Source: Nemertoderma westbladi
Lineage: Eukaryota; Animalia; Xenacoelomorpha
NCBI GenBank assembly: GCA_032718475.1
Contig: JAUCBJ010008410.1
Location: 1 to 64,000 of the forward strand
Length of the DNA stretch: 64,000 nt
Reading direction: 5' to 3'
Positions 1 through 39,091 of the stretch are shown here, one piece after another (the first letter of the stretch is position 1; every line of letters starts with the position of its first letter). The notes beneath the pieces are model-generated. The model saw only the letters and a program-made list of their open reading frames with translations, made no database searches and was not told the DNA's origin. The position numbers and the translations under genes were made by a program.

Positions 1-1
1 T

Positions 2-604
2 GATGATATAAATAAACTGTTTAATTCTGAAGCGAAATATAGAGATTTCGAATTCATTTTTAATACAAATAATTCTAGAATTAAATTTAAATTTCCTAAA
101 AAGTTGAAAAAAATACAATTAAGTCTACGTGGTGATTTAATACAAATTCTAGGCTTAAAACCGTTATTGGATCGGAATCATCCGGATATTCCGAATTGGG
201 ATATATACAGTACCACTACAGTAGATGAATTAAGCAATATAGAACAGCCAATATTAATTTTAAATTATAGCGGGCCAAAAATTTCGGAAATTGGCATTTT
301 AGATTTTCCAGCTCCCACGAATATAACTCGTAATAAAGACACTATCTTTATATACACAGATATTATTAAGAGCTCATTTGTTGGCGACGCTTTAGCACCG
401 CTCTTAAGAACCTGTCCTTTAACGCAATTAAATCGAAAATATATTAATCACGAATACGAGAGCATTTGCTATTACCCGTTGTTGAATAAAAAACTAAAAA
501 CAATCTTAATTACTTTACGTGACGGCCAAGGCCAATTAATTAACTTCAGCGGAGGTCGCACTGTTATAACACTTAAGTTAATACGGGGTGGCGGTGATGG
601 ATGA
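2..604 (+). CDS. Polinton minor capsid (penton-like) protein, paralogue 1, 5' partial
   Basis: Frame is open from position 2. The C-terminal motifs IFIYTDII..SFVGDALAPLLR, YYPL and ITLRDGQGQLINFSGGRTVITLKL match Polinton minor capsid proteins. Confidence 0.8.
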   Translation, partial: DDINKLFNSEAKYRDFEFIFNTNNSRIKFKFPKKLKKIQLSLRGDLIQILGLKPLLDRNHPDIPNWDIYSTTTVDELSNIEQPILILNYSGPKISEIGILDFPAPTNITRNKDTIFIYTDIIKSSFVGDALAPLLRTCPLTQLNRKYINHEYESICYYPLLNKKLKTILITLRDGQGQLINFSGGRTVITLKLIRGGGDG

Positions 605-1442
605 GTTCTACGTTAGACTACCAAGTAATTCCTGTCCAATTGATTTTCCCCGCAATAGCGCTAGTAATTATCAGATAAATTTCCACGGCGCCTTACCTAT
701 AAATCCAAACGAAAACTGGGTGGTAGGTATAAAAAGTATATTTTACTTAGCAACGTTACCGTCCATGTATAACAATGTAGAGAATGTTATTTTATTAAAA
801 AAAGGAAAAAAAAATTTTGAGGATACACTTCCATCCGGTTTGTTCTACAGTATCAATGACATTATAGATTATTTTAACACGGGGGCATTGAAAGATAAAT
901 TACAAATAGTTGAAAATACTCAGCAAAATAGGTTGCAATTTATTTTAGGGAAAACTGTGCGAGAGTTATTTATAGGTCAACAATTAGCCTATTATTTTGG
1001 AATTACTGAAAATAATCTCGGCGCGAATTTAAATCCAAATTTTAAAATTATTTTGAAGACGAAAAATAATATAAAGGGTTATTTAATAAAGGTTATCGGA
1101 AATGGAGAAAAAGCTTACCAGATGGTATTTTTATGCCCTCAACCACCCAATTCTATTCCAGAACCTAAGTCGAACATGTACGTGACTACTAATATAATTG
1201 AAAATCAATATATTAATGACTTTGGTTTAGCTTTACTTCGTCGTGTTGCGATACCTGATGACGTGAAATATGGTAGCGTAATAAATAAAGAATTTGTCAA
1301 GGATACAATTCATTATATCCCTGTAAAAAAATCATATAAGATAACATACATTCATATTGAAATAACAGACAAAGAAGGAAAAGATTTGAATTTTGAATAC
1401 GGGACAACATCTATTACATTACACTTTAAACGTATAAATTAA
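597..1442 (+). CDS. Polinton minor capsid (penton-like) protein, paralogue 2
   Basis: N-terminal FYVRLPSNS..FPRN...WVVGI and C-terminal YIPV...IHIEITDKEG.DLNFEYGTTSITLHFKR motifs. ATG at 597 (the ORF track starts at GTG 588). Confidence 0.82.
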   Translation: MDEFYVRLPSNSCPIDFPRNSASNYQINFHGALPINPNENWVVGIKSIFYLATLPSMYNNVENVILLKKGKKNFEDTLPSGLFYSINDIIDYFNTGALKDKLQIVENTQQNRLQFILGKTVRELFIGQQLAYYFGITENNLGANLNPNFKIILKTKNNIKGYLIKVIGNGEKAYQMVFLCPQPPNSIPEPKSNMYVTTNIIENQYINDFGLALLRRVAIPDDVKYGSVINKEFVKDTIHYIPVKKSYKITYIHIEITDKEGKDLNFEYGTTSITLHFKRIN

Positions 1443-1443
1443 A

Positions 1444-2004
1444 ATGGATTCTGATTTATTTCAAAGATACAGTAAACCTCAATATGGGGGTTCAGACTCG
1501 AATCTTGCTGTTTTTAAAGGTGGTAGAAGTACCAGAGGTTCGACGCAAGTTCCTGTTTTTCGAGGTGGTTCATATATTGACCCTTACGGTCAACAAATTG
1601 GCACATTTGGTCCAAACTTAAAACAACGTCGTTTTCAGCGTTATCGTAGAGGTATGCAGGCAAATCAACACGGAGAAGGTATATTTACAGACGCCTTATC
1701 GACATTGAAAAAATTTGGTAAGCCATTAGCTAAAAAAGTTTTACAGAAAGCTTTACCATTTACCACAAAATTTATGAGACAACACGTAATACCAAAAGGT
1801 AAGCGGGTCTTACATCAGCAGGCTAATACGGTTATTAATAAAGCGTTAAATAAAATGAAACCGTCAACAAGATCGGTTGTAGAAAAAGTTTATAGAGATT
1901 TAAAGCGACCCGCTAGACCAATGTCTATGAACATACATCATCGACATAGTAAAAAGAGAAATATAAAGGGCAAACTGAAACACTGCGAAAAAAGTATTTT
2001 TTAA
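1444..2004 (+). CDS. Basic Lys/Arg-rich virion core (pVII-like) precursor protein
   Basis: Very basic protein between the minor and major capsid genes, with Gly-Gly/GxG sites (QYGG, FKGG, FRGG, QHGEG) resembling adenain cleavage sites. Confidence 0.6.
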   Translation: MDSDLFQRYSKPQYGGSDSNLAVFKGGRSTRGSTQVPVFRGGSYIDPYGQQIGTFGPNLKQRRFQRYRRGMQANQHGEGIFTDALSTLKKFGKPLAKKVLQKALPFTTKFMRQHVIPKGKRVLHQQANTVINKALNKMKPSTRSVVEKVYRDLKRPARPMSMNIHHRHSKKRNIKGKLKHCEKSIF

Positions 2005-2006
2005 TA

Positions 2007-3266
2007 ATGTCAATTATTAAGGAATTAGATTTATTTTCTACACAACCAATACAGACTGAATTTAAAGCAAAGCATTATGAAACAATTTACCCCGTATCTA
2101 ATCTCAGAAGTGAATCTAGGGAGGTCACCTTCCTTGTACCCAGATCCAATGAATTCTATACGAAACTGCAAGATGCTTTATTAATTACAAAATGTACAGT
2201 ACGCTGGGATAGGCGACTTGAAAACTCTCATATATATATGCTGAATTACCCCGCTGAAACTATGTGGAGTGATATTAAAATAGACCTTAATGAGAAGCAG
2301 GTTGAAAATAGCAATAACCATTATTTCTACAAGTCGTACTTATCCAATTTATTATTTACAACTTACGAGGATAAAAATGGGCTACTGGGTGCGGGTGGCT
2401 TTCATCAACCTTTATCTGAACACGGAAATGAAATTGACTCAGACGTGCATCCTATTGACGATGCCTTTAGTAAACAAATGCAATTTGTAAGTGGATTGAC
2501 GATTGATTTTGATACTGAAACTAAAATAATACAACCCGGGTATGATTTAAGAATGCATTTTAGAAAAGTATCAAATTCGTTTATTTTTAAAATCACTCCA
2601 AACGCAAACGCCGTGACAAATCTTCGGCTAGAATTAGATGAAATAAAGATTCTAATCCCTAGAATGGAGGTTAATCCAGTAATAGAAAGCAGTCACCTAA
2701 AAGGTTTAGAGAGCTACGATATTGAATATCAATTTCAAAAGAAAGAGGTGACAACATTTACTATTCCCGCACAAACCACAAATTACACCCAAACAAACAT
2801 ATTTGATGGTAAAAAACCCAAATTAGTTATTATCGGCTTCATAACAAATAACTCTTATTCGGGAGAATTAATTAGCAATCCCTTGAAATTTGAACATTTT
2901 AACCTTAGACGTGCGGAACTGATTGTAGACGGTCTTCCAGTAGGGGGTGTAATATACGAGCCTAATTTTACAGATGGAACATATATTTTTGAGTATACTC
3001 AATTAATGAAAAACATTAATACATATATTAACGGTTATGGAGGTAATAATATAGACCATGAAACCTACTTAGGTAATTGCCCCCTCCTATCCTGGGACCT
3101 AACCGCCGACGGGTATGTTAGAGATCCGCAACCGTCGATATATACTAACGGCAAATTAAAATTAAGATTTGCCGAACCGTTGGTTGAAACCATAAATGTA
3201 ATCGTTTTTAATATTTATGATCAATCATTAAGTTTAAATAGCAGGAAAGAAATACATATCGATTAA
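2007..3266 (+). CDS. Polinton major capsid protein (double jelly-roll)
   Basis: 419 aa. N-terminus ELDLFSTQPIQT...IYPV...VTFLVP and later NPLKFEHFNL, WDLT.D and LKLRFAEPL motifs are typical of Polinton MCP. Confidence 0.9.
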   Translation: MSIIKELDLFSTQPIQTEFKAKHYETIYPVSNLRSESREVTFLVPRSNEFYTKLQDALLITKCTVRWDRRLENSHIYMLNYPAETMWSDIKIDLNEKQVENSNNHYFYKSYLSNLLFTTYEDKNGLLGAGGFHQPLSEHGNEIDSDVHPIDDAFSKQMQFVSGLTIDFDTETKIIQPGYDLRMHFRKVSNSFIFKITPNANAVTNLRLELDEIKILIPRMEVNPVIESSHLKGLESYDIEYQFQKKEVTTFTIPAQTTNYTQTNIFDGKKPKLVIIGFITNNSYSGELISNPLKFEHFNLRRAELIVDGLPVGGVIYEPNFTDGTYIFEYTQLMKNINTYINGYGGNNIDHETYLGNCPLLSWDLTADGYVRDPQPSIYTNGKLKLRFAEPLVETINVIVFNIYDQSLSLNSRKEIHID

Positions 3267-3268
3267 GT

Positions 3269-3724
3269 ATGTTATCTACAGAGGACCTTGATATGTTTCC
3301 AGTGGGCGGTCACTATTTGGGAGCGTTTCCAGCTAACAAATTACCTAAATTAGATAATAATAATAAGCGGCGGGATTATGGGTTAATAGTAAATACCGAT
3401 AAAGAGCATCTGCCCGGGATTCATTGGATCGGGATATATATACGAGATAATGAGGCCGAAGTATTTGACTCGTTTGGACCAAAATATCCAAACAGATGCA
3501 TCGAAAAATGGCTTGAGAAAAATTCCGCGAGGTGGCGTACTACACGCAAACAATTTCAAGACCCCCGGAGGACCACATGCGGTCTGTACTGTCTTTATTA
3601 TTTGGTAAATCGTATTCACACAATCTATCCAATGAGTGCGTTTACAAATAATGTGGAAATAAATGAAATTATATTATATAAATGGCTTGTTAATTATTAT
3701 AAATTAAACCAACAAACTTTGTAA
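3269..3724 (+). CDS. Adenain/Ulp1-like cysteine maturation protease
   Basis: IVNTD...PGIHW, FDSFG and Q.....TCGLYCLYYL supply the catalytic His/Asp/Gln/Cys. Confidence 0.92.
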   Translation: MLSTEDLDMFPVGGHYLGAFPANKLPKLDNNNKRRDYGLIVNTDKEHLPGIHWIGIYIRDNEAEVFDSFGPKYPNRCIEKWLEKNSARWRTTRKQFQDPRRTTCGLYCLYYLVNRIHTIYPMSAFTNNVEINEIILYKWLVNYYKLNQQTL

Positions 3725-3755
3725 TTAATTATTTAACTTTTGTTTATCAGATAAA

Positions 3756-4355
3756 ATGGATAATATTACTTTTGTTGATTTTCAATATTATAAGATAGAC
3801 AATAAAGAGTATCCGGTAGTATTTAAAGAATTTGCTATTTTCGATTCTAATTACACCAAAACTAATATAAAGACGTTTTTAATTAAAGGCCCTCCTAATA
3901 TTAAATTATCAGCATTAGATGCAGCCCACGTAAACAATTTACGGGATATGGCTTCTCACTTGCCCTGGAACTATGGAGACATTTCGCAAGACGACTTTAA
4001 AAAATATATGAAGAGATATTTAAAATATAAAAAAAATATTCATGTATTTGGGTTGATGAAGCGGGCAATATTAGTTTCCCAACTCGATGTTCTCGAGCCA
4101 AATTCGGTGGAGAAATTGGGAATATATAAGCAATATCATGATTATTTAACCCCTTGTCGATTTCACGACCGATTCACTACAGTGGAAAGTAAATGCACGT
4201 TCCACTTAAACATAAGGGATAACTGTCTGCGATACTGCTCAGCAAAACGCGTTGGGGGGTTTGAGGCTCTACACTTTTTCATGAGAAAGCGTTTAACTGC
4301 GACTGATGATGATGATAAACAGAAAGAAATAACTGCGGTGGAAGATGTACTGTAG
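3756..4355 (+). CDS. DEDD-type (Maelstrom-like) RNase H-fold nuclease-like protein
   Basis: FVDFQ...FKEFAI, LPWNYGDI and IHVFGLMKR motifs with a C-terminal C..H......C cluster. Confidence 0.55.
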   Translation: MDNITFVDFQYYKIDNKEYPVVFKEFAIFDSNYTKTNIKTFLIKGPPNIKLSALDAAHVNNLRDMASHLPWNYGDISQDDFKKYMKRYLKYKKNIHVFGLMKRAILVSQLDVLEPNSVEKLGIYKQYHDYLTPCRFHDRFTTVESKCTFHLNIRDNCLRYCSAKRVGGFEALHFFMRKRLTATDDDDKQKEITAVEDVL

Positions 4356-4682
4356 GTTTACTCTAAGCATGTAATGTGATGGGATAATATAATTTTATTT
4401 TGGTGATGATCTTGATGTTAATATAAAAATATAATAAAATATAATTTTTTTTACAACAAGTTCTCTAAAAGAGTCAATCGCGGTAGGTTAACCATGCACA
4501 TTTAACAATATGACGTAGACGTAACATGTACAGTAAGTATTCTCGATATCGTTCTAATATAGATATACTGGTATTGCGAAACATCCTATACATCGCAAAC
4601 TAATAACACATACAGTAGTTGACTAGTAATATTAGTCAGAAATGCAACATAAATTGTATAGGATGTAGTGTTAACCTGTTGG

Positions 4683-5670
4683 TACCGGTACTGATAAATT
4701 CAATAATTTATTATAAGCCTAACCACAACTGTCATCCGCTTTATCAGTACCGGTAGTGTTTTACTCTTCCAACACTGTAGTCACAGTCTACTGGTATCAG
4801 TACAGCAGTAATCTGAAGCAATAGCATACTGCTGTCATGATCTGGATTACACGCAGGAGTCTCTCATATAGGGATTAGATCACCTATCCAAACAATACAG
4901 TACTGCAGTACTGTCGTTGTTCTTGATGTAACAGCATAATCAGATAGAGCATACTGATTTCCTTTGATTAGCATTGTACCGCAGTACCAGTACTACAGTA
5001 TTAATGTAACAGTACCCGCAGTAACAAACTAGGCTAATGTATACAATATCGTGAGTCAGTTACAATCAGATGTGTACGCAGTCAGCCACTCCTATCCACA
5101 ACTGTCATCCATTTTATCAGTACAGCAGTAATCTGATGTAATAACATTTGTTTTTTTTTTCAACTATAAGGATACTGCTGTCTACCCGAACCTTGATTAG
5201 CATACTGCTGTCATAACCTAGAAGGGACGCGTAGCTCTCACATATAGGGATTAGATCACCTACCCAAACAATACAGTACTGCAGTACTGTCGCTGTTCTT
5301 GATGTAACAGTATAGTCAGATAGAGCATGCTGATTTCCTTTAATTAGCATTGTACTGCAGTACGGTACCGGTACCACAGTATTAATGTAACAGTACCCGT
5401 AGTAACAAACTGAGTCAATGTATACTTTATCGTGAGCCAGTTACAATCGGATGTGCGCGCAGTCAGCCATACTGCTGGGAAACGGTCCACCTTGCAGCCG
5501 TCTAGCCACCCTCACAGTCAGCCTCGCGGCACGCAGTCAGCCTCGCAGTCAGCCTCGCGGCATGCAGTCAGCCTCGCAACCAGCCTCGCAGCACGCAGTC
5601 AGCCTCGTGGTCGGTCATGTAGTCAGCCTCGCGGCACGCAGCCAGCCATGCAGCTAGACACGCAGTCAAC
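4683..5670. repeat. Non-coding palindrome/direct-repeat block between convergent gene modules
   Basis: 16-bp perfect inverted repeat at 4683-4698/4740-4755. Two diverged ~300-350 bp direct repeats (about 4795-5088 and 5115-5469), each with the 18-bp palindrome ACAGTACTGCAGTACTGT. About 7 copies of CAGTCAGCCTCG at 5515-5631. Confidence 0.85.
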
Positions 5671-5763
5671 CCGTGAGAGTCATGCTTATTCAAACGAGGT
5701 TAGTTTTCCCTAACTACCGATTGATTGATTGATTGAAAAATAATAATGTTTAATTTTCACCTT

Positions 5764-6309
5764 CTAATCACCAACACCTAAAGTCACAACACCAAACATT
5801 AATAAATAATTAACAAGTTTACTAAATATAGGGTAATAAATGTGAAATTTGCTAGGTGAACACATTAAAGTACATTTACCGGTATGAAAGCAGCAAATGA
5901 CTACAGTATTATTTATTCTTATTTTGCAATTATTAAAAATTTCAGGTTCATATATAACTTGAAGTTGCACATTATCAAAGACAACATAAAACCCTGTATT
6001 GTTTATCAATAACCTATAGACTACAGACTTAATACTAAAAATATAAGTACATAAATTAACAGATTTTAAAATCAAATTAATACTAGTTTTATCAAATATA
6101 TGTTTTTTTACTTTTTGGAAATTATACTTACTGCCTAATAATGTAATACGACCATTTTTAAATATTAATAATGTGGCACCAAATATCTTATATATAAACT
6201 GATTTGGTTTGAGTATGTGTTTACCAGATAATTGATTTTTTAATTCTTTCAAATTAATTGCTGACACTTGCTGGCAACTTACATTCTTATTGACTATCTG
6301 ATAGTTCAT
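5764..6309 (-). CDS. TATA-box-binding-protein (TBP)-like protein, copy 1
   Basis: Two TBP repeats, ATLLIFKNGRITLLGSK and YEPEIF...VVICCFHTGKCTL, compare well with TBP TALIFSSGKMVCTGAK and YEPELF...VLLIFVSGKVVL. At 181 aa it is the size of the TBP core. Confidence 0.82.
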   Translation of the reverse strand: MNYQIVNKNVSCQQVSAINLKELKNQLSGKHILKPNQFIYKIFGATLLIFKNGRITLLGSKYNFQKVKKHIFDKTSINLILKSVNLCTYIFSIKSVVYRLLINNTGFYVVFDNVQLQVIYEPEIFNNCKIRINNTVVICCFHTGKCTLMCSPSKFHIYYPIFSKLVNYLLMFGVVTLGVGD

Positions 6310-9300
6310 TGTTTGGTTCCTGATAAATTGGTATATTGTTTTTTTTCATAGGTTTTTCGACCTTTGTTTGATAGTGACCCCAGGGAAGCGAATGATTTTT
6401 ATTAACCCAATAAAGTTTATCATCAAATGCGCTGAGAGCAAACTTATCTCGTGCTATAGTATACACTTTGTGTAATTTACTTTGAAATTGATGTGTTTCC
6501 TTGGAAATTTCTTCGTTATCGTAATATGCCCTCAAATAATCTTCGTGACAAATATTTTTATCCACGACAGCTCTTGTTATTCCTTTTGCCCGTCGTATAT
6601 TGGAATCATTCCATTCTAAAATTGAATATAATTTTGGTCTTAAAAATACCGCTTGTTTAATCTCTCGTGAGGCTAGTTCGTCTTTACAGTAATAGAGCCT
6701 GGATTTATTTTTATCGCTGTAGAGAGGGTGATCCTTGGGGTAATTGGATGTATCTAGAATATTATTTTTAATTAAGGCTTTTAAAAAATTATTCTGCGAT
6801 GTATTATAGTAACAACCTATTAAAGAGTCCGTGTCTGATGCTACAATTTCAATTCGGCAGTTTAATTCTTTCTCAATAGGTAGCAATTTATCGTAATACA
6901 GCTGATACATATCCAATTTAGCCAAGTCCAAGACAGTACTACCTATATAGACCGGCTTATCGAGAGTTACAGAGTCTTTTACTAATAAATGTCCCGATAA
7001 GGAATCGTTATAAATCATGAAATTTTCATGATTTATTCGTTTGACTAATTGGTCACATTTTTCTTTACTATTAGCGATACGAAAGTTGCATCGGTCCCTT
7101 ATCTTCTCTATCGTTTTTCCAAATAAAGAATTGTTCAGCAATTTCGCGACAGCTGTTTAAATATAACTTTTTGCTAGCCGCCTTTGATTAATATTAAAAT
7201 CTATATAGGGTTTAAATACAAAGTCTTGATGGAAAGAATATAATTTATGGAGCTTAGTAACAATTAAACCTTGTTTTATATAAAATTTTAACAGTTTTAA
7301 ATTTACATGATAGAATTCTTTATCGAATTGTGTCAACATAAGTTTCGGTGCACACATCTTATACTTGCTATTAGTGCCTCTTTGTTTACAAACATTGTTA
7401 AATTGTTCCCTCATATAAGGTGAAAGCATTGTCTCATTTATACTTAAATGTTCTGGAGCTAAGGGTAGTTCTAATGTACGATCGTGAATATCTTTGGGAT
7501 ATTTCAAATCGCAAATTAAGAAAAACCCAATATCACCTTCAGTATCAAGATTTGTTAAATATTTTATCAGTTCTTCTGGAGCAGCATTCTCTAAATATGT
7601 AACGTTGACTTGTTCAAAACCTGAAACAGGTAGCTTTTTACTTAAATTACCAGAATACAAGGAATTAAAATCTATATTGAAAATATGACACTCTTCCTTG
7701 CTTGGATCATAATTATCAGTATCTGGTATATTTGATTCTATGTAATGCTTTCGACAGAATGAAACCCCTCCTCTAATAGATGCTTCAAAATCTCTATATG
7801 TTTGGTAATCTTTTATTAATGTTAACTTACATTTATTGTATTTCAGGGCGCAATCATAAGTGAAAGCTGCGATACTGCAATAATAAACTACTTCTAATTC
7901 GTAGTTTTGTCTACACACTCTCCTAAAGTTCTCAAATATATCAGCGAGGAGACAAACATCGAGTTTTAAGTATGCTAAAAGATAATCCTTGAGATTCACA
8001 CAGTCAAACTGACTCCATGATGCGTTGGCAAAACTATATTCCTCGGGTGTACAGGTATTTTGTGTTAATTTACTATAAAATTTGTCTATTGATGGTAATT
8101 TCGAATCATTGAATTTATTTAAATCTGTCAGATACTCGTAGGGAAATATACCTTTTCGTTTAATTGTTGCATTATTTAAATTTGGATAAAAATATTTCAT
8201 TTGCTGTTCAGTAATTGGTAGAACTGATGTTATATCCTCGCTGTCTATATCCTTTGTTGAACAATCAACTAAAGTACTTAGGGAAAAGGATAAAAATTGA
8301 TATGTGTCTAAGACACGTAGCTCGATCTTAGTTTTTTCATCTTTCACTGGTATATGCATGCTTAGTGAAATATACCTTTCAGAATTTTTAGGGATTACCT
8401 TTATATCCCAATCGGAATATTTATTATTGCTAAAACCAACTTGCAAAAGAAAATGCAAATCGTAGAGATTGCAGTTGTGTGCAGCGAGTATATACATGTG
8501 TCATTTCAACGATAAAGAGCGGTTACATGCGTTACAAGCGGCCGCTATATAGTTACCAGTAATATGTGAGTGATGTTTGTTTTTCTCAGACTTATCCTTA
8601 AATAAAACATTGCAATAAAAGCAAGTTTTAGCTTTCCAAAAACTTAACTTATCTGCATCATTAAGTATCATTCTCTCTCTTGTGTGGTCTTCCGACCACT
8701 TATATAATTGGGTGATGTCATTATATACAGAGTCTAAAAAGTCTTGAATACAGTTGTTGTCGATTGTTTTTGTAAAGGTCTTCAAATAAAATTTTGGTGG
8801 ATTGATTAATTCGGCACTAGGAACAATTAAATAACTTACAGCGCATGGAATATGATTCTGAATAAATTTACTGTTGGTGGCTGGCTCCAAAATAGATTCT
8901 ATGTCAAAATATATTACAAACAATGCTGGTAATGTTCTGTCTAAATTTCTAAAGCTAATGTGAGTTCTTTTTTCAGATGGTAGCTTCTCAACTTGACTTT
9001 TTCCTCGATAACAAACAAGACGGTGACGTTCTAGAACATCATTGGTGTAGAAAGGCGCCAAACACCGTTCACAATATTTCCTACCACGAGTATGAAGAGC
9101 TCTCGTATTCATCAAACGATTCAAGTTAGTTATGCAAACATAATGTGATTGTTTACTCGTATTCTTATTTTTTACAAGTAATATATTCAATAACTCTTTA
9201 TCTGGAGTGATTTTACTAAATGGTGCCTGTCTTAATATAGATACTCGATTGTTGTTGTAGAGTAATAAATTAATTATATATGCTGAATTCTGTTTTTCAA

Positions 9301-10309
9301 AAAGTTTAATTGCAAGCTGCCATTCTGTTGGATAATCTTTGTTCCCGTTGTCAAAAATAAAATGACACATATAATTTTTGTACTGCGAAGTACAATATTT
9401 GTTGTTCTTCACTTTGCTACTAAATTTTGTAGCTATAATTGCCCATTTAAAACAATCATTATCAGCCGTTTGTATATTTATAACACATTTTTTAACTGAT
9501 AGAGCCTTAGGTAACTCCATATAACCGTGTCCCTTATATAGTAACGACCTACACTTGGATTCAGCTACTTTAATTTCAACCCTTAATAAAGATTTAACAC
9601 GCCACCCTGAGCCACGAGTGTTAAACATGGCTATTTTTTGCATTAATTTTTCTAATACATACTCAAACCATGTGTCAAAACTTTCATGTGAATCTACGGT
9701 ATTAACTGCACCACCTGAAGAACTAAAATAGAAAGCTTCTTCTTGATCACCCTCTGAAAAATGTGATCGATACATGAGTATATTCACACCTAGCCAGGGT
9801 CTAAGTACATTCATTTCGCTAAGTTTTCCTAATAATAAAGTTTGGATGTGAGGTAGAATTTTAATTAATGATGAATGAATATCAGGAAAATCTTCATCAT
9901 TTGGAAGATTGTAAACATAGATTTCTAAACGGTTATCGTGTGCGGCTTGTTCGATGTTAAAAATTGATGAACCTTGACCAGATTTCAGTCTTTTTCTAGA
10001 TACGATAGTATTGTTTTGGTTCCGTTGTGGTGGTGGTCTAACATGATAATAACGTTGGTGACAGTCGTGACGTAAGTAATTCTCATATAAATACTCTTTA
10101 TTACAAGTAGGGCAAGTTTTTTCATACACGCAAAACTTCATTTCTTTACATCCTGTAGTTGTTTCATGTCGTTTACATATTTCTTCACGTGAACATTTCA
10201 CTCGACAATTAAAACAATTGTATTCTTCAAAATGAGATTTCACATGTGTTAAATAATTTCGTTTAGAAATTTGATGAGGACAAAATGGACATTTCAATTG
10301 TTTATCCAT
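6287..10309 (-). pseudogene. Protein-primed family B DNA polymerase (pPolB), copy 1; 1340 codons with two in-frame stops
   Basis: The three ORFs are in one frame, joined by LK*HMY (TGA 8501-8503) and SYI*TAVAKLLNNSLFGK (TAA 7157-7159). Motifs: GSGW, DNDCFKWA, FDIES, HN...YDLHF, KGIFPYEY, DFNSLY, SDTDS. Confidence 0.93.
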
Positions 10310-10865
10310 CTCTTTATTATCCTAAAAACAATTTAAAATTAATATGAATATTGTTATATATATAATCAAAAAAATTCATAAGCTACTCAACACAAATAAA
10401 ATATAATATCTAAACTTTAATTAATTTAATATTTTCAGAATGAGCTCGAATGAATCAGTTGAGCTCTTTATATATATATATATTTCAAGTTTCTACTTAT
10501 ACCAACCAATCATAAATAACAGTTACATTGGAAACTAATATCATAAATAAAGTTGCTTTTACAACTGAATTCTTTATAATAAAATCAAGTCTAAACCAAG
10601 ATGTGTATAATGCGTTTTTAATTTTCATTGATAAAGTAGGTTTTACATGCAAATGTTTTATTATGGTGGTGTAAACTCATGCATTTACATGCGAATGTTT
10701 TATACCTAATCCCGTGCTCACATTAAATATAAACTATCACCAATATTTACTCAATAAAGTCACCTTTACATGCAAATACTTTATAATAATCACACTTTGT
10801 GATAAAAAGTTACCTTTACAAGTCAGTGTGAAACTGAAAAAGAAAAGTCTCTAGTTAATAATAAA

Positions 10866-11255
10866 TCAATCTGATACTGTTTTTATATGTTCCTTATTGT
10901 AATCTGCTACCTCTTCACTTGCTTTTGTAACTTTTATTTTCTTTGTAGGTATAGAATCATTGTTGGGAATGGAAGATGTTTGAGATGTAGATCTGCGCTT
11001 TCTATCACTCGAGGTCTCTTCGATGTATGTCTTTGGATTAAATGTGGATGAAACTACTTCTGGAAATGACTTATTAACCTTAAACTTCCAAGTTGGTGGA
11101 TATAGAATCGTGAAACCGTCTGCTATATCAGTTGATGAAACATTTAACATCATATCGTAGAGAAACTCTATATATGGTATGTCTTTATCGTAATGTAACT
11201 GTAAATATTTGCTTTCCTTGTCTGTAATAATTACTTTTTTTTCTTGTACATTTAT
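10866..11255 (-). pseudogene. 5'-truncated duplicate of the 347-aa PC4-like gene
   Basis: Matches the 3' part of 17059-18102 and is cut at the duplication junction. Confidence 0.9.
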
Positions 11256-11952
11256 GAGATGTGTACGCAGTCAGCCACTCCTATCCACAACTGTCATCCA
11301 TTTTATCAGTACAGCAGTAATCTGATGTAATAACATTTGTTTTTTTTTTCAACTATAAGGATACTGCTGTCTACCCGAACCTTGATTAGCATACTGCTGT
11401 CATAACCTAGAAGGGACGCGTAGCTCTCACATATAGGGATTAGATCACCTACCCAAACAATACAGTACTGCAGTACTGTCGCTGTTCTTGATGTAACAGT
11501 ATAGTCAGATAGAGCATGCTGATTTCCTTTAATTAGCATTGTACTGCAGTACGGTACCGGTACCACAGTATTAATGTAACAGTACCCGTAGTAACAAACT
11601 GAGTCAATGTATACTTTATCGTGAGCCAGTTACAATCGGATGTGCGCGCAGTCAGCCATACTGCTGGGAAACGGTCCACCTTGCAGCCGTCTAGCCACCC
11701 TCACAGTCAGCCTCGCGGCACGCAGTCAGCCTCGCAGTCAGCCTCGCGGCATGCAGTCAGCCTCGCAACCAGCCTCGCAGCACGCAGTCAGCCTCGTGGT
11801 CGGTCATGTAGTCAGCCTCGCGGCACGCAGCCAGCCATGCAGCTAGACACGCAGTCAACCCGTGAGAGTCATGCTTATTCAAACGAGGTTAGTTTTCCCT
11901 AACTACCGATTGATTGATTGATTGAAAAATAATAATGTTTAATTTTCACCTT

Positions 11953-12498
11953 CTAATCACCAACACCTAAAGTCACAACACCAAACATTAATAAATAATT
12001 AACAAGTTTACTAAATATAGGGTAATAAATGTGAAATTTGCTAGGTGAACACATTAAAGTACATTTACCGGTATGAAAGCAGCAAATGACTACAGTATTA
12101 TTTATTCTTATTTTGCAATTATTAAAAATTTCAGGTTCATATATAACTTGAAGTTGCACATTATCAAAGACAACATAAAACCCTGTATTGTTTATCAATA
12201 ACCTATAGACTACAGACTTAATACTAAAAATATAAGTACATAAATTAACAGATTTTAAAATCAAATTAATACTAGTTTTATCAAATATATGTTTTTTTAC
12301 TTTTTGGAAATTATACTTACTGCCTAATAATGTAATACGACCATTTTTAAATATTAATAATGTGGCACCAAATATCTTATATATAAACTGATTTGGTTTG
12401 AGTATGTGTTTACCAGATAATTGATTTTTTAATTCTTTCAAATTAATTGCTGACACTTGCTGGCAACTTACATTCTTATTGACTATCTGATAGTTCAT
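11953..12498 (-). CDS. TBP-like protein, copy 2
   Basis: Translation identical to 5764-6309. Confidence 0.82.
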   Translation of the reverse strand: MNYQIVNKNVSCQQVSAINLKELKNQLSGKHILKPNQFIYKIFGATLLIFKNGRITLLGSKYNFQKVKKHIFDKTSINLILKSVNLCTYIFSIKSVVYRLLINNTGFYVVFDNVQLQVIYEPEIFNNCKIRINNTVVICCFHTGKCTLMCSPSKFHIYYPIFSKLVNYLLMFGVVTLGVGD

Positions 12499-15400
12499 TG
12501 TTTGGTTCCTGATAAATTGGTATATTGTTTTTTTTCATAGGTTTTTCGACCTTTGTTTGATAGTGACCCCAGGGAAGCGAATGATTTTTATTAACCCAAT
12601 AAAGTTTATCATCAAATGCGCTGAGAGCAAACTTATCTCGTGCTATAGTATACACTTTGTGTAATTTACTTTGAAATTGATGTGTTTCCTTGGAAATTTC
12701 TTCGTTATCGTAATATGCCCTCAAATAATCTTCGTGACAAATATTTTTATCCACGACAGCTCTTGTTATTCCTTTTGCCCGTCGTATATTGGAATCATTC
12801 CATTCTAAAATTGAATATAATTTTGGTCTTAAAAATACCGCTTGTTTAATCTCTCGTGAGGCTAGTTCGTCTTTACAGTAATAGAGCCTGGATTTATTTT
12901 TATCGCTGTAGAGAGGGTGATCCTTGGGGTAATTGGATGTATCTAGAATATTATTTTTAATTAAGGCTTTTAAAAAATTATTCTGCGATGTATTATAGTA
13001 ACAACCTATTAAAGAGTCCGTGTCTGATGCTACAATTTCAATTCGGCAGTTTAATTCTTTCTCAATAGGTAGCAATTTATCGTAATACAGCTGATACATA
13101 TCCAATTTAGCCAAGTCCAAGACAGTACTACCTATATAGACCGGCTTATCGAGAGTTACAGAGTCTTTTACTAATAAATGTCCCGATAAGGAATCGTTAT
13201 AAATCATGAAATTTTCATGATTTATTCGTTTGACTAATTGGTCACATTTTTCTTTACTATTAGCGATACGAAAGTTGCATCGGTCCCTTATCTTCTCTAT
13301 CGTTTTTCCAAATAAAGAATTGTTCAGCAATTTCGCGACAGCTGTTTAAATATAACTTTTTGCTAGCCGCCTTTGATTAATATTAAAATCTATATAGGGT
13401 TTAAATACAAAGTCTTGATGGAAAGAATATAATTTATGGAGCTTAGTAACAATTAAACCTTGTTTTATATAAAATTTTAACAGTTTTAAATTTACATGAT
13501 AGAATTCTTTATCGAATTGTGTCAACATAAGTTTCGGTGCACACATCTTATACTTGCTATTAGTGCCTCTTTGTTTACAAACATTGTTAAATTGTTCCCT
13601 CATATAAGGTGAAAGCATTGTCTCATTTATACTTAAATGTTCTGGAGCTAAGGGTAGTTCTAATGTACGATCGTGAATATCTTTGGGATATTTCAAATCG
13701 CAAATTAAGAAAAACCCAATATCACCTTCAGTATCAAGATTTGTTAAATATTTTATCAGTTCTTCTGGAGCAGCATTCTCTAAATATGTAACGTTGACTT
13801 GTTCAAAACCTGAAACAGGTAGCTTTTTACTTAAATTACCAGAATACAAGGAATTAAAATCTATATTGAAAATATGACACTCTTCCTTGCTTGGATCATA
13901 ATTATCAGTATCTGGTATATTTGATTCTATGTAATGCTTTCGACAGAATGAAACCCCTCCTCTAATAGATGCTTCAAAATCTCTATATGTTTGGTAATCT
14001 TTTATTAATGTTAACTTACATTTATTGTATTTCAGGGTGCAATCATAAGTGAAAGCTGCGATATTGCAATAATAAACTACTTCTAATTCGTAGTTTTGTC
14101 TACACACTCTCCTAAAGTTCTCAAATATATCAGCGAGGAGACAAACATCGAGTTTTAAGTATGCTAAAAGATAATCCTTGAGATTCACACAGTCAAACTG
14201 ACTCCATGATGCGTTGGCAAAACTATATTCCTCGGGTGTACAGGTATTTTGTGTTAATTTACTATAAAATTTGTCTATTGATGGTAATTTCGAATCATTG
14301 AATTTATTTAAATCTGTCAGATACTCGTAGGGAAATATACCTTTTCGTTTAATTGTTGCATTATTTAAATTTGGATAAAAATATTTCATTTGCTGTTCAG
14401 TAATTGGTAGAACTGATGTTATATCCTCGCTGTCTATATCCTTTGTTGAAAAATCAACTAAAGTACTTAGGGAAAAGGATAAAAATTGATATGTGTCTAA
14501 GACACGTAGCTCGATCTTAGTTTTTTCATCTTTCACTGGTATATGCATGCTTAGTGAAATATACCTTTCAGAATTTTTAGGGATTACCTTTATATCCCAA
14601 TCGGAATATTTATTATTGCTAAAACCAACTTGCAAAAGAAAATGCAAATCGTAGAGATTGCAGTTGTGTGCAGCGAGTATATACATGTGTCATTTCAACG
14701 ATAAAGAGTGGTTACATGCGTTACAAGCGGCCGCTATATAGTTACCAGTAATATGTGAGTGATGTTTGTTTTTCTCAGACTTATCCTTAAATAAAACATT
14801 GCAATAAAAGCAAGTTTTAGCTTTCCAAAAACTTAACTTATCTGCATCATTAAGTATCATTCTCTCTCTTGTGTGGTCTTCCGACCACTTATATAATTGG
14901 GTGATGTCATTATATACAGAGTCTAAAAAGTCTTGAATACAGTTGTTGTCGATTGTTTTTGTAAAGGTCTTCAAATAAAATTTTGGTGGATTGATTAATT
15001 CGGCACTAGGAACAATTAAATAACTTACAGCGCATGGAATATGATTCTGAATAAATTTACTGTTGGTGGCTGGCTCCAAAATAGATTCTATGTCAAAATA
15101 TATTACAAACAATGCTGGTAATGTTCTGTCTAAATTTCTAAAGCTAATGTGAGTTCTTTTTTCAGATGGTAGCTTCTCAACTTGACTTTTTCCTCGATAA
15201 CAAACAAGACGGTGATGTTCTAGAACATCATTGGTGTAGAAAGGCGCCAAACACCGTTCACAATATTTCCTACCACGAGTATGAAGAGCTCTCGTATTCA
15301 TCAAACGATTCAAGTTAGTTATGCAAACATAATGTGATTGTTTACTCGTATTCTTATTTTTTACAAGTAATATATTCAATAACTCTTTATCTGGAGTGAT

Positions 15401-16498
15401 TTTACTAAATGGTGCCTGTCTTAATATAGATACTCGATTGTTGTTGTAGAGTAATAAATTAATTATATATGCTGAATTCTGTTTTTCAAAAAGTTTAATT
15501 GCAAGCTGCCATTCTGTTGGATAATCTTTGTTCCCGTTGTCAAAAATAAAATGACACATATAATTTTTGTACTGCGAAGTACGATATTTGTTGTTCTTCA
15601 CTTTGCTACTAAATTTTGTAGCTATAATTGCCCATTTAAAACAATCATTATCAGCCGTTTGTATATTTATAACACATTTTTTAACTGATAGAGCCTTAGG
15701 TAACTCCATATAACCGTGTCCCTTATATAGTAACGACCTACACTTGGATTCAGCTACTTTAATTTCAACCCTTAATAAAGATTTAACACGCCACCCTGAG
15801 CCACGAGTGTTAAACATGGCTATTTTTTGCATTAATTTTTCTAATACATACTCAAACCATGTGTCAAAACTTTCATGTGAATCTACGGTATTAACTGCAC
15901 CACCTGAAGAACTAAAATAGAAAGCTTCTTCTTGATCACCCTCTGAAAAATGTGATCGATACATGAGTATATTCACACCTAGCCAGGGTCTAAGTACATT
16001 CATTTCGCTAAGTTTTCCTAATAATAAAGTTTGGATGTGAGGTAGAATTTTAATTAATGATGAATGAATATCAGGAAAATCTTCATCATTTGGAAGATTG
16101 TAAACATAGATTTCTAAACGGTTATCGTGTGCGGCTTGTTCGATGTTAAAAATTGATGAACCTTGACCAGATTTCAGTCTTTTTCTAGATACGATAGTAT
16201 TGTTTTGGTTCCGTTGTGGTGGTGGTCTAACATGATAATAACGTTGGTGACAGTCGTGACGTAAGTAATTCTCATATAAATACTCTTTATTACAAGTAGG
16301 GCAAGTTTTTTCATACACGCAAAACTTCATTTCTTTACATCCTGTAGTTGTTTCATGTCGTTTACATATTTCTTCACGTGAACATTTCACTCGACAATTA
16401 AAACAATTGTATTCTTCAAAATGAGATTTCACATGTGTTAAATAATTTCGTTTAGAAATTTGATGAGGACAAAATGGACATTTCAATTGTTTATCCAT
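12476..16498 (-). pseudogene. pPolB, copy 2 (same two in-frame stops)
   Basis: Same frame structure as copy 1, with 6 amino-acid differences. Confidence 0.93.
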
Positions 16499-17058
16499 CT
16501 CTTTATTATCCTAAAAACAATTTAAAATTAATATGAATATTGTTATATATATAATCAAAAAAATTCATAAGCTACTCAACACAAATAAAATATAATATCT
16601 AAACTTTAATTAATTTAATATTTTCAGAATGAGCTCGAATGAATCAGTTGAGCTCTTTATATATATATATATTTCAAGTTTCTACTTATACCAACCAATC
16701 ATAAATAACAGTTACATTGGAAACTAATATCATAAATAAAGTTGCTTTTACAACTGAATTCTTTATAATAAAATCAAGTCTAAACCAAGATGTGTATAAT
16801 GCGTTTTTAATTTTCATTGATAAAGTAGGTTTTACATGCAAATGTTTTATTATGGTGGTGTAAACTCATGCATTTACATGCGAATGTTTTATACCTAATC
16901 CCGTGCTCACATTAAATATAAACTATCACCAATATTTACTCAATAAAGTCACCTTTACATGCAAATACTTTATAATAATCACACTTTGTGATAAAAAGTT
17001 ACCTTTACAAGTCAGTGTGAAACTGAAAAAGAAAAGTCTCTATCTAGTTAATAATAAA

Positions 17059-18102
17059 TCAATCTGATACTGTTTTTATATGTTCCTTATTGTAATCTGC
17101 TACCTCTTCACTTGCTTTTGTAACTTTTATTTTCTTTGTAGGTATAGAATCATTGTTGGGAATGGAAGATGTTTGAGATGTAGATCTGCGCTTTCTATCA
17201 CTCGAGGTCTCTTCGATGTATGTCTTTGGATTAAATGTGGATGAAACTACTTCTGGAAATGACTTATTAACCTTAAACTTCCAAGTTGGTGGATATAGAA
17301 TCGTGAAACCGTCTGCTATATCAGTTGATGAAACATTTAACATCATATCGTAGAGAAACTCTATATATGGTATGTCTTTATCGTAATGTAACTGTAAATA
17401 TTTGCTTTCCTTGTCTGTAATAATTACTTTTTTTTCTTGTACATTTATTTTTACTTTAAGTCGGTCAGATAAAGCTTTATCGCCCGTATCTAGCTCTGAA
17501 AAGACACCTTCGTTACTAATTTCATAATTCCATTCATACCACAATGAATTTACTTCCGATGCTGTTAAGTTAAACCCATTATAATACCTAAGACCAATAG
17601 CATCAGAATATCTAGCTGAAATCTCCCATAGTCCCATATAAGTCGCTCCTTTATATTTGCTTACAAAACCGACAAAAGATGGGTTGGTTAAATTAACAAC
17701 AGAACACTGATTTATTATTTCGAGTGGTGGTGATAACAATTCTAATATTTCTGTCTTACTCTGAAGCAATAAATTAATGAGTGATTTGTTTAGAATTTGA
17801 CATTTGCCTTGCTTCTGAATATATACGTTTTCAGTAATAACACAGGTGGAAATATTTAACTTTCCTCTTGTAAATTCTATATTAGGATAAATATTACCTC
17901 TTGAAACTGGTGATTCCTTTTGTCGGTTGATTAATATTTCTAAGACGTCTAGAAGGTAGAGTGTATCCTGGTAAGAGAAGCACGTTGTTACATTGCTATC
18001 GCTTGAGAGTAATATAAAGTACTTGCCATAAACAATACTACAGGTATATTTATTAAATGTAAATTTCCAAGTATTGCTTGAAGTTTTTTTAAATAAATCC
18101 AT
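17059..18102 (-). CDS. Polinton protein with PC4/Sub1-like ssDNA-binding segment and basic C-terminus
   Basis: Intact 347-aa ORF. FVSKYKGATYMGLWE...GFNLTASEVNSL resembles PC4 VSVRDFKGKVLIDIREY...GISLNPEQWSQL. RKRR and KKIK look like NLS patches. Confidence 0.5.
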   Translation of the reverse strand: MDLFKKTSSNTWKFTFNKYTCSIVYGKYFILLSSDSNVTTCFSYQDTLYLLDVLEILINRQKESPVSRGNIYPNIEFTRGKLNISTCVITENVYIQKQGKCQILNKSLINLLLQSKTEILELLSPPLEIINQCSVVNLTNPSFVGFVSKYKGATYMGLWEISARYSDAIGLRYYNGFNLTASEVNSLWYEWNYEISNEGVFSELDTGDKALSDRLKVKINVQEKKVIITDKESKYLQLHYDKDIPYIEFLYDMMLNVSSTDIADGFTILYPPTWKFKVNKSFPEVVSSTFNPKTYIEETSSDRKRRSTSQTSSIPNNDSIPTKKIKVTKASEEVADYNKEHIKTVSD

Positions 18103-18541
18103 AATTAGAATGAAAACTATTTTGAAAAATAAAAACTAAATAAATGATTATTAGAATGTAAAACTTCGGTTTATATGCTTGCTTTAATAAAACAGAGTGA
18201 CTTACAGTGAGGAATATAGTTGCTTCGTGTAACAGATGCAACGTGTACAGCTAAATTTATTACATTAGCGTGAGTTAGAGAGTGAAATAGCAGTAACGTG
18301 TAACAGATGCAACGTGATCAATGCTAGCCCTGTCATTCTAACTTATATTCAACTTAGTTGATCGACCAGTTACATCGATAAAAGAAATTGATTATTATTA
18401 ATAGTCGAATTAATGTATTCTACGCTATAGTAATTATGTTAAGGAACTAGAAGCTATTTATAAACATCTGCTACCAGTGATGAAGATGAAGAATTCAATG
18501 ACTATGGTATAACTCAGATATTTATCGCCTTTTTCTCTCGA

Positions 18542-28098: not shown

Positions 28099-30160
28099 TC
28101 AATTTTTTTTACGTTTTAAGGATTTGAACCTGGTCACATTAGAACTTCCGATTTCAGTTCTCACAATATCATCTTTGCTTTTTTTAGTTTCAGCGCTCAA
28201 AAACAAGTTCACAATCTTTGATATGTACTTCCAATGATGCGATTTATGTAAAGTACATAAAAACGTGCAGTCCAGCTCATCTTTCAAAGATTCGAGGCAA
28301 AACCGCTTTAGAATTTCAGCCGAATTTCTGAGCATAGATACTGTTAGATATGGAAACACTGATGACAGAATTGCGAAGGTTTTAGCGCAAAAAGAAACAA
28401 ACTCCTCATGAGCAATACATAAACCACCCTTGTTTATTTTTTCCATATACGACTGAGATCCTGGTAGATCTTGAACGAGATGAGACTGTTCACATTTATC
28501 CGGAGACAAACTCTCAACAATCCAACCAGCAAGATATTCAATGACATCAAGACTCTCACTGGTAACATCCAAATCATTAAATACAAGTTCTTCTCTAAGA
28601 CAGATTTCCTCCAACTGATGGAAGGCTGTCTCATATTCTGGTCTGGCGATGTAATCCGTAATATCCAATGCTTCTTTTAATAAACACTTAATCTGGAGGA
28701 TATTTTCCGAAGTACGAGCCTGGCGCAATCCAATTAGAAACATTCCACCGGAGATCTGGCGGTAGGCCAAAAATCGCAACTCGATCTTCTCATCTCCTAG
28801 TACGGATAAGTTGAAATGTTTATAACCCCAATTATTAAAAGCAAGATCTAGAATTTTTGCGACATTAGTTGTTGTGTAAATGAAGGCCCTGATCGTGTAA
28901 GTAGTGAAGCATTGATGTGGAACGCCCAAATCACGCCATCTACAAAAAAAATCCGCAAACTTTCCGAAGAATATAATTCGTTCATCGCCAACTGAGAATG
29001 TTCTCGAGTATGGCGAAGAAGTTGCTGTCTTCGTATTCATAAACAACCAGAATATACGAAACAACTTTAGAAAATTAGCTGTAGCATTGCTCTTAAGATA
29101 AAACTCCATTGCTTCAATTGTTCGCCGATCATATATATTCAAAACCAGTTGAGTGTTCTGTTTGTTGTTACTGAAGTTGAGAGTTTGATAAGATAACCGA
29201 GGAGCACGACGTAAATTCATTTGTTCTTGGACTGTGTCCAATTTGTAGAGCATTTTCAGGTCATCGCAGTTTGCTTGACTTTCCCCTCTTATAATAAAGT
29301 TCATCACACTTGTCAATAAGGCTGGCTGATTGCTTTTTCATTGTTTCGAGCGTTATCAGCAACAAATATTCGAGGAATAAATCCCGCATCACGTAGCAAA
29401 TTGTACAATTAATATAGTTGAGCAAATATTTCTTCTCCAGAAAGGCTGGCGGGGCACGGAGTTTGTTTAACAACAATTGCTTCGCCATAAGTTAGTCCTC
29501 GAACCATGAAACAAAATAAAATTTTGTCACGAGAATCAACAATCCCTCCCTGGCAAAAGGAAGCGCCACGTTTCAAATAAATTTCGTCCCCATAAATGGC
29601 AACCTGTCTGTCAATATCCATTCCCTGTATAGCATATAGTATAGTATATAGTATAGTATAGTATAGTATAGCGTTAATAAAGGCAGGCCCGGACGATGTC
29701 AGCAGGAAAAATGGGAAACTTCTTACAATACCGATACCAAAGAAATCCAGAAATTCCCTCGGTAATTCGTTTTCATCCGAAATATGAGTGAACAATGTGA
29801 CTTCGTTGATCAACCGCACCAATTTAGACTTTAAATTAACTTTACTAAACCCAGAGTTGTTACGATGTAGCCAACTGAAATTATACAGCGGAATTTCGCT
29901 TCCTTGTTACTTCACTATAAAACTATCAAGTCCGACTGAAATCGAAAAAGAGAGGAAACAAGCCGTCTCATCCAGTTCAAATATATCTACAAATCCTTCC
30001 CGTCGACGAACTCAACTATCTCGCCCAGCTAGTGAAGGTTCTGCAGACAAGAACCCAAAGGAATCACTAGCCAATCCAGACTGTCCAAATCCTTAAGTTT
30101 CTTCATCTCCGACGCTTCACATTCGATCTCGGTCTGGTAGCGGACTTTGTTGGTTATTTC
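28099..30160 (-). pseudogene. P-element/THAP9-like transposase, frameshifted
   Basis: GDEIYLK, APRLSYQTLNFSNNKQNTQLVLNI, DEKIELRFLAYRQISGG, YLAGW and KGGL motifs. TIRs not identified. Confidence 0.75.
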
Positions 30161-30982: not shown

Positions 30983-32046
30983 ATATTAGAGAATGAAGGT
31001 CAGCAGCACCCGCAAGCAAAATTAAGTTAAGGTATAAATGCCTGTCTATATTATAGTCCTTCTTCAGGCAAATAAAATAAGTACAATATAACCGTTAACA
31101 CGTTAGATATAACTGAAAGTTTTAAATTTCCCTCCAATTGTAAAGGTTATGCAATGCTTGATTATATGGTAAAGTAGGTGTGAGTTGGTAAATGTAAAGT
31201 ATAGTAGGTGTGAGGTACAGTAGGTGCACGCTGGTAAATATTACTACATTGAGTAGGTGCACGCTGGTAAATATTACTACATTGAAAAGAAGGTAACAAT
31301 GAAATATAATTATGCTAAAGAATGAATAACAATAATATGAATAAATCGTGGTAAGTATGTAGAGTAGGTGCACATTAATATTATGTACCGGCGGTAAATA
31401 TTAATACAACACATAAAATAGGAAACAAATAAACTAAGAGAGAAAACATAATTATGTTATGCATGAATATATTAATATTATGTAACGGTTGTAAATAAGG
31501 TGTGAGGTGCAGTAGGTGCACACTGGTAAATATTAATACATTGCAAAGGAGGTGACAATGAAATAATGAAAGAAATATAATTATGTTATGCAAGAATATT
31601 AATATTATAACAGTGGTAAATCATAGAATATGGTGGTAATGTAAAGTAGATGTAGGGATGGTAAGTGAAGTAGGTGTGAAGGGAATGAAATATAATTATG
31701 CTAAGCGTGAATATTAATAATGTGTATAAATCGTGGTAAGTATGTAGAGTAGGTGCAAATTAATATTATGTACCGGCAGTAAATTTAATATAGTATAGTA
31801 ATATAATAATATAGACCCCTAGATCCCTTCCTATACTGTAACTCACACCTACTTTACCATATAATCAAGCATTGCATAACCTTTACAATTGGCGGGAATT
31901 TTTTTAAAACTTTAAGTTATATCTAACGTGTTAACGGTTATATTGTACTTATTCTATTTGCCTGAAGAAGGACTATAATATAGTCAGGCATTTATACCTT
32001 AACTTAATTCTGCTTGCGGGTGCTGCTGACCTTCATTCTCTAATAT
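30983..32046. mobile_element. Foldback/MITE-like element with ~205-bp terminal inverted repeats and internal tandem repeats
   Basis: 30983-31186 is the reverse complement of 31840-32046 with few mismatches. Internal repeats of GTAGGTGCAC..GGTAAATATTA. Confidence 0.8.
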
Positions 32047-38225: not shown

Positions 38226-39091
38226 TCTGATTCTGATTCACTACCTTTAACAAGAAGTCCCTCTGACTTCTTTCGAGTTGGACACGCTGAAGCCCAATGT
38301 GAATTATCACTGCAAAGTTGACAACCTCTTTGAGTACATTTCCGAGCAAAATGTCCCCCAACACCACACTTGAAACATGGAGCCTTGCTCTTCCGGAATC
38401 CTGGTGAAGAAGTGAACTGCTGCGGCTTGCTACTCCCACTGTCTTGTTGTCCCTTCTTTGCATAACCCTTTTGTTTCACTGATAAAAGGGCATTCTCTGT
38501 TTCACTATTGTGTGTGTGCCGTGCACTTTCATTAAACAGTAAACCCTTTATATTGTCCCATGACATTTCATTGACAGCAACATCAATCGCTGACAGCATG
38601 GAATTATACGATGATGGAAGTGATCCTAAAACAGTAAGTGCGAATGCCTTGTCCGTAATATTCTCTTCTGGATCAAGTTCATTAATCTTTGTGTAAAGAT
38701 TCCTCATCTCCGTAACATGTTTCTCAACGTTGCCACCATTTGGCAACTGTTTATTGAAAAATTCGGTTCGAAGTCTAACAATCTTTAGCCATGATTTTCG
38801 ATCAAACTGTTCCTCTAATGCATCCCAAGTTTCCTTTGCAGTCGTTGCATCCTTTATATAGCAACGCAATTCCGGATCAATAGCTAGTGCAATAGTTGTG
38901 CGTGCGCGAGTTTTCCTTCGCATAAACGCAGCTCTACCAGCTCCTTCCGGTGGAGTAGGATCTCCAATGACAAACTCCCACAAATCGTGATGTTCCAATG
39001 TAAGCTGCATTGTGTAACGCCATTCACGATAGTTTTCGGACCGCAGTTTCTCGATTTTCTCTATCTTTAAACCGCCAATATCATCCGCCAT
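38222..39091 (-). CDS. Copia gag with zinc knuckles
   Basis: NYREWR, AKETWDAL and LGSLPSSY motifs, with CFKCGVGGHFARKC and CQLCSDNSHWASAC knuckles. Confidence 0.92.
   Translation of the reverse strand: MADDIGGLKIEKIEKLRSENYREWRYTMQLTLEHHDLWEFVIGDPTPPEGAGRAAFMRRKTRARTTIALAIDPELRCYIKDATTAKETWDALEEQFDRKSWLKIVRLRTEFFNKQLPNGGNVEKHVTEMRNLYTKINELDPEENITDKAFALTVLGSLPSSYNSMLSAIDVAVNEMSWDNIKGLLFNESARHTHNSETENALLSVKQKGYAKKGQQDSGSSKPQQFTSSPGFRKSKAPCFKCGVGGHFARKCTQRGCQLCSDNSHWASACPTRKKSEGLLVKGSESESE

Follow-up and report, generated by a model that had tools for sequence, protein, structure and literature searches.

The product encoded at 5764-6309 on the minus strand of the analysed window, a stretch of 64,000 nucleotides from Nemertoderma westbladi, is, according to our sequence analysis, a real two-lobed member of the TATA-binding protein (TBP) fold family and a maintained gene of the Polinton that carries it. 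The 181-aa reading frame is intact and contains both TBP repeats, as the sequence-only reading of this DNA had stated: Pfam TBP (PF00352) matches it in two stretches (E=3.5e-10, 40 bits against a cut-off of 22.9), and a profile of 120 TBPs, built without the 181-aa protein, covers its residues 2-167 (E=1.4e-13 in a single comparison). When 5691-6400 was shuffled 2000 times, an open stretch of at least 181 codons never arose. With a pI of 9.6 the protein is basic, and it contains all of the motifs LIFKNG, YEPEIF and CFHTG. TBP clusters make up 29 of its 30 ESM Atlas matches (score 0.95), with a recognition value of 1977 that lies below the tool's 2300 mark and is weak alone; a PDB search from the sequence alone returned no TBP among its matches.

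The host Polinton and its copies

The TBP-like gene closes a block of genes that runs towards the capsid genes of the same element, and the features are as follows.

2-604 (open at the window edge) and 597-1442, plus strand: two ORFs, likely minor capsid (penton), named from their position
1444-2004, plus strand: basic 186-aa ORF, likely a virion core protein by its Gly-Gly motifs
2007-3266, plus strand: major capsid protein, 419 aa, with 43 homologues
3269-3724, plus strand: adenain-like maturation protease (Pfam Peptidase_C5, 23.4 bits against a cut-off of 21.3)
3756-4355, plus strand: 199-aa ORF ending the capsid block, from the ORF list, no family assigned
4356-5763, no strand: non-coding spacer of about 1.4 kb, towards which the capsid block runs from one side and the PolB-TBP block from the other
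5764-6309, minus strand: TBP-like gene, intact, two lobes, 181 aa (Pfam, profile, Atlas, AlphaFold and selection data)
6287-10309, minus strand: family-B DNA polymerase (PolB) in three ORFs, with in-frame stops at 8501-8503 and 7157-7159
5065-17448, no strand: tandem duplication (5065-11255 and 11254-17448), 99.8% identical, unit of 6.19 kb
11953-12498, minus strand: second TBP copy, identical, within the tandem duplication and not independent evidence
12476-16498, minus strand: PolB in its second copy, likewise interrupted by both stops (ORFs, self-alignment)
17059-18102, minus strand: 347-aa ORF upstream of PolB, part of which, shortened, recurs at 10866-11153

Three Polinton hallmarks are present in the window, namely the family-B polymerase, the major capsid protein and the maturation protease; integrase, packaging ATPase and terminal inverted repeats were not found in it, and the element runs off its left edge. 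Two of the 43 capsid homologues are named as capsid or major capsid protein of the coral Porites lobata, and in loci that carry a capsid gene the PolB pieces align with single ORFs of about 1150 aa, with E down to 1e-65. Both the capsid relatives and the transposons around the element point to an animal host. Pfam gave no PolB match for the pieces at 6287-10309, where we take the polymerase motifs to be recognisable by eye. The Gly-Gly motifs of the 186-aa ORF are presumably akin to adenovirus-type cleavage motifs, and the start of the 199-aa ORF resembles, to our eye, a DEDD exonuclease motif. No family was found for the 347-aa ORF in Pfam, PDB, PHROGs or Atlas; by eye it seems to us to consist of repeated strand-strand-helix units and to resemble PC4/Sub1 at residues ~135-195, and PC4-like domains were rejected as a candidate, being without support in these same four resources. 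The spacer contains a direct repeat of ~375 nt, a short tandem array and an ATTAAA 10 nt past the TBP stop, and the 6.19-kb duplication is either recent or an artefact of assembly. Elsewhere in the window there is an apparently intact copia-type retrotransposon (34584-39596; 266-nt direct repeats, 99.6% identity; 1115-aa pol frame), a likely non-autonomous DNA transposon with inverted repeats of ~205 nt and 96% identity (30983-32046), and a 401-aa ORF on the plus strand (28099-29304), which by eye presumably resembles a P-element/THAP9-type transposase.

The TBP-like ORF and the last PolB piece share 23 nt, between the ATG of the former and the stop of the latter, exactly as had been reported. 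The further claim, that this amounts to coupling to the end of PolB, is not borne out: the gaps between the capsid-block genes are -8, 1, 2, 2 and 31 nt, and the junction differs in a subfamily diverged by ~16%. The overlap needs no special coupling because packing among the capsid genes is no looser. No RNA polymerase, as the earlier reading had correctly observed, and no TFIIB-like ORF is found among the ORFs of the ~18 kb in view (1-18200) of this incomplete element.

The TBP-PolB region was compared with four of seven listed sequencing runs, in a comparison from which stretches below 80% identity drop out. Region 5690-10900 matched 3602, 1499, 99 and 26 contigs in the four runs, all identity classes taken together, numbers that point to many variant copies of the element and give no copy number. 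At the two PolB stops nearly all contig depth reads otherwise in the runs covering both places; the copy in the window is dead, which need not be true of the whole family, because the other contigs are mostly without these stops. No indel is listed for the TBP stretch in any of the four runs. In the ~16% diverged subfamily (46 differences in 293 letters) TBP is joined to the PolB end, with a junction 18 letters longer. A total of 65 differences among copies fall into TBP, and the best-supported 40 were scored: 26 of them affect the third position of a codon, synonymous and non-synonymous changes number 20 each, and no stop arises from any. The pN/pS of ~0.24 from these 40 of 65 (P=1.4e-5; 0.0002-0.006 when transition bias is allowed for) is a rough figure that errs on the low side, with sites scored singly, stretches below 80% identity lost and only the best-supported rows used. 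Residues F38, F50, F125, F141, Y120, P122, E123, G53 and G144 are unreplaced in any listed difference, and E121 stays acidic in all of them. Since the other copies, diverged subfamily included, have no listed indel and a pN/pS of ~0.24, we conclude from their comparison that purifying selection acts on the TBP gene and that it is maintained as a viral gene. Loss or disruption of the ORF in all other copies, the outcome that the sequence-only reading had named against itself, was not seen, no indel or stop being listed. Pieces were also seen, at low depth, in a run (X5) that carries a different organism label, from which we draw no conclusion.

Predicted fold and residue anatomy

The AlphaFold model computed with an alignment of 80 sequences (pLDDT 75.6, pTM 0.66) has the two-lobe order of strands and helices and a saddle topology, with five strands plus helices per lobe and helix H1' barely formed. 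Every listed PDB match of this model at E<=0.001 is a TBP entry, and named giant-virus TBPs are among its matches in viral structures, a fold test that is partly circular, as the alignment behind the model consisted of TBPs. The model from the single sequence, without alignment, was uninformative (pLDDT 41). The absence of a predicted TBP fold, also named beforehand as fatal to the idea, was not what we found: the AlphaFold model is two-lobed and its PDB matches at E<=0.001 are all TBP.

According to the TBP alignment, F50, F125 and F141 occupy invariant columns, and F50 and F141, mapped by position, we take to be the near-universal L5.1 Phe of PMC7221094. The position of F38 is ambiguous. Sequence alignments place it on the fourth intercalating Phe, with a 3-residue deletion after it; both AlphaFold models have it inside strand 37-42, and in the alignment-based model a mere 2-residue turn precedes it. 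It may be a stand-in for the lost fourth Phe or a core-packed residue. The claim that Phe is kept at three of the four intercalating positions stands for F50, F125 and F141 and is ambiguous for the fourth, where the models favour "three of four". The YEPE stirrup was read correctly, Y120-E121-P122-E123-x-F125 being canonical in the C lobe, with E121 and E123 as the acidic pair. The loop between strands 2 and 3 has 2 residues in the N lobe versus 5 in the C lobe of the alignment-based model, and the N-lobe stirrup is predicted to be shrunken.

Of the 45 TBP positions at which at least 80% of the aligned sequences agree, 21 are kept and 24 changed. The N-lobe Arg-Asn and Glu-Tyr, conserved in TBPs, are replaced by S28-G29 and I32-L33, with an uncertain register of helix H2. 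An Asn pair at the dyad is a feature of TBP; N7 is kept here, and the second Asn aligns with S95, at a low posterior. The residues kept on the DNA face are the three Phe, N7, T46, L48, K41 and R131. According to the available part of PMC7221094, the acidic C-lobe pair is the contact for TFIIB/Brf, the acidic residue used by TFIIB also serves Brf1 and Brf2, and the N lobe of TBP is the contact for TFIIA, TAF1, Mot1 and NC2. Judged by its residues, the Polinton protein is lopsided, with the TFIIB-binding signature kept and the N-lobe regulator signature gone.

Relatives and known viral TBPs

With cellular TBP (PF00352; PDB 1mp9, 1cdw, 1ytb) the Polinton protein shares the two-lobe saddle, the three intercalating Phe and the YEPE stirrup. 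It differs in having at most 29% identity, no N-terminal extension, a shortened N-lobe stirrup and a replaced second dyad Asn, and the N-lobe regulator surface of eukaryotic TBP (TFIIA, TAF1, Mot1, NC2) is missing from it. In a 47-row tree, which has no animal TRF2-type sequence among its rows, the protein sits on an end branch of 6.24, is of odd composition and has at most 29% identity to any TBP examined; its origin is not placeable by the tree because of this branch and composition. A set of 5.8 billion sequences gave no close relative among 40 candidates, and 1.84 billion representatives yielded one match, named TBP by its source (E=8e-4). In viral contigs no locus was confirmed with the TBP query, a two-sequence alignment or the PolB end, and 16 viral TBP loci had no match to the capsid or PolB of this element.

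Through capsid relatives 20-29% identical we collected 81 Polinton loci, namely the best 80 of at least 464 confirmed in metagenomes and one viral contig. Within this selection, in which many contigs are partial, a TBP match occurs in none of the 81 loci (best E=0.57). The maturation protease is matched in 75 of them and the likely penton ORFs in 53 and 40, often to one gene; the 199-aa ORF is matched in none, and the PolB end is present in 15, usually followed by the ATPase. Because there is no match in these 81 related loci, TBP is, as judged from their sequences, lineage-restricted and not a Polinton core gene, in agreement with the earlier placement of it outside the core set. One Polinton locus (L085, 7406-11559) has the same converging layout of capsid, protease and opposite-strand PolB, with ~260 nt between protease and PolB and without TBP.

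The TBPs of Nucleocytoviricota are mostly accompanied by a viral RNA polymerase. That viruses encode TBPs is established for giant viruses and poxviruses (PMC7221094 and PMC12917281, in their available parts) as well as for herpesviruses, and it follows from PMC7221094, to the same extent, that viral TBPs usually lose both the TFIIB and the N-lobe regulator signatures and bring their own TFIIB, that the acidic pair is conserved in known ones at only ~40%, that almost all viruses carrying a TBP also encode a TFIIB, and that private TBP-TFIIB pairs tend to co-diverge. Nucleocytoviricota TBPs, such as the putative TBP of Heterosigma akashiwo virus (rank 2 in BFVD), resemble the Polinton protein in being divergent and in having lost the N-lobe regulator signature; they are often without the acidic pair and mostly with a viral TFIIB, whereas the Polinton TBP keeps the pair and has neither a viral TFIIB nor a polymerase gene in view.

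KSHV ORF24, the late TBP mimic of beta/gamma-herpesviruses, is similar in its TBP fold, in belonging to a nuclear virus without its own polymerase and in the proposed late-gene role. According to the available part of PMC12529657 it is without the acidic TFIIB residues, is predicted to clash with and exclude TFIIB, is multi-domain, and pre-assembles with Pol II and ORF34; the Polinton protein is, compared to it, a bare 181-aa core with an intact stirrup. The analogy to the herpesvirus vPIC that had been drawn for this gene is good for the role only and fails for the TFIIB contact, in which ORF24, lacking the acidic residues, is the opposite of the Polinton TBP.

A gene label "TBP" was given to MELD viruses with an adintovirus-like PolB in the legend of Fig. 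5 of Starrett et al. 2021 (PMC8502044, available in part; preprint 10.1101/697771). There, too, a Polinton-like virus with a PolB of this type carries something like a TBP gene; in that paper, in the part available, it is a label in a legend only, in a section on non-animal datasets, whereas here we have an animal endogenous family with an analysis of selection and residues. Beyond that legend we found no published study of a Polinton TBP, in a search outside of which most subscription papers lie; Polintons are unmentioned in the available parts of four supplements of PMC7221094, and TBP or TATA in PMC11161782, PMC10748475 and 10.64898/2026.06.19.733378. Known already is a TBP label in Polinton-like viruses, and new is a selected animal Polinton TBP variant with a host-type TFIIB loop.

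Proposed function and its alternatives

We lean slightly towards suggesting, from the sequence, that this TBP is a promoter factor that would recruit TFIIB and host Pol II, probably for the capsid genes, in line with the redirection of host Pol II proposed in the sequence-only reading. The protein would bind and bend AT-rich promoter DNA of the element, with an altered specificity (Ser95 for one dyad Asn and several changed residues of the concave face), would recruit host TFIIB through the kept YEPE stirrup and thereby host RNA polymerase II, and, its N-lobe regulator residues being gone, may escape control of the TFIIA/Mot1/NC2/TAF1 type. Host Pol II would then switch on the capsid genes late in the cycle, a timing that we infer because TBP belongs with the PolB-block genes, whose strand is not that of the capsid block. 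The DNA binding may be weak or non-specific, because only 21 of the 45 highly conserved TBP positions are kept. What may count against the promoter-factor reading is that no shared promoter word was detected for the five capsid-block starts, that the 81 related loci apparently do without TBP, and that a viral TFIIB may lie outside the window. Sequestration of TAFs, which the sequence-only reading had offered as a further option, is unlikely because the surfaces lost are those of the N lobe.

No promoter word shared upstream of the five capsid-block starts was significant, the best of 8 settings being matched by 12 of 150 random sets, in a search of low power. An acceptor-like YAG lies 5-14 nt before four of eight starts (6309, 3756, 16498 and 18102; P=0.06, with a threshold chosen after viewing the sites), and before the TBP start it lies at 10 nt. 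This suggests, without reaching significance, cis- or trans-splicing of element genes, TBP included. The TBP and 199-aa ORF starts are preceded by one common 8-mer at the acceptor-like sites. Upstream of PolB (16736-16976 and 10547-10787) there are three repeats of ~34 nt, two of them containing ATGCAAAT, which we take to be the octamer motif, and the repeats are a possible early enhancer.

It might be argued that the protein is rather a decoy or repressor that sequesters host TFIIB/Brf or occupies host TATA boxes unproductively, damping host or antiviral transcription, as its TFIIB stirrup is better preserved than its DNA face and the sequences ahead of the five capsid-block starts yielded no fitting promoter word. 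We regard this as quite unlikely: the kept DNA-face residues, from the three Phe and N7 to T46, L48, K41 and R131, are those that a protein acting on DNA should retain, good binding of TFIIB to TBP requires bent DNA, and a standing repressor of host genes would presumably be costly in an endogenous family of many copies. Also unlikely in our opinion is that TBP works, in the manner of giant viruses, with a TFIIB-like protein encoded outside the window and engages host Pol II only after that. The near-universal company of a TFIIB in viruses with a TBP (available part of PMC7221094) and the window edge that cuts the element speak for such a partner, but no TFIIB-like ORF lies in 1-18200, and a YEPE loop of canonical form is in keeping with a host partner that has not changed, where private pairs tend to co-diverge (same source).

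The kept YEPE loop would be left unexplained if the protein were used outside transcription, as a bender of AT-rich DNA aiding replication, packaging or integration at the element ends, and this we find very unlikely despite the adjacency of TBP and PolB in both subfamilies. The same stirrup could recruit Brf1/Brf2 for small element RNAs, through the acidic residue that both of them use; Brf1, however, also needs the N-lobe basic patch (both from the available part of PMC7221094), which is apparently eroded here (helix H2, at low confidence), and a Pol III route is highly improbable. Barely credible is that the gene is a host TBP captured not long ago, neutral and without any role: it is indeed absent from the 81 distant Polinton loci (the best 80 of at least 464 and one viral contig), but its identity to any TBP examined is at most 29%, its end branch is 6.2, and it is under purifying selection with no listed indel across the subfamilies.

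Returning to the promoter factor, we may suggest more tentatively a viral TBP reduced to a bare core, which would use host TFIIB and Pol II without a viral TFIIB, polymerase or helper complex, would have shed the surfaces of host restraint, and would serve as an early-to-late switch, a possibility that we consider real and yet doubtful. If true, it would directly support the view that Polintons go through a nuclear virus cycle autonomously, and the Polinton TBP would be a solution distinct from those of herpesviruses and giant viruses. A natural minimal variant of TBP would also show which surfaces are dispensable for Pol II initiation. An element-encoded, selected TBP with an intact TFIIB loop is a small (181 aa) and testable handle on the control of Polinton capsid genes, and it bears as well on whether animal Polintons are autonomous viruses.
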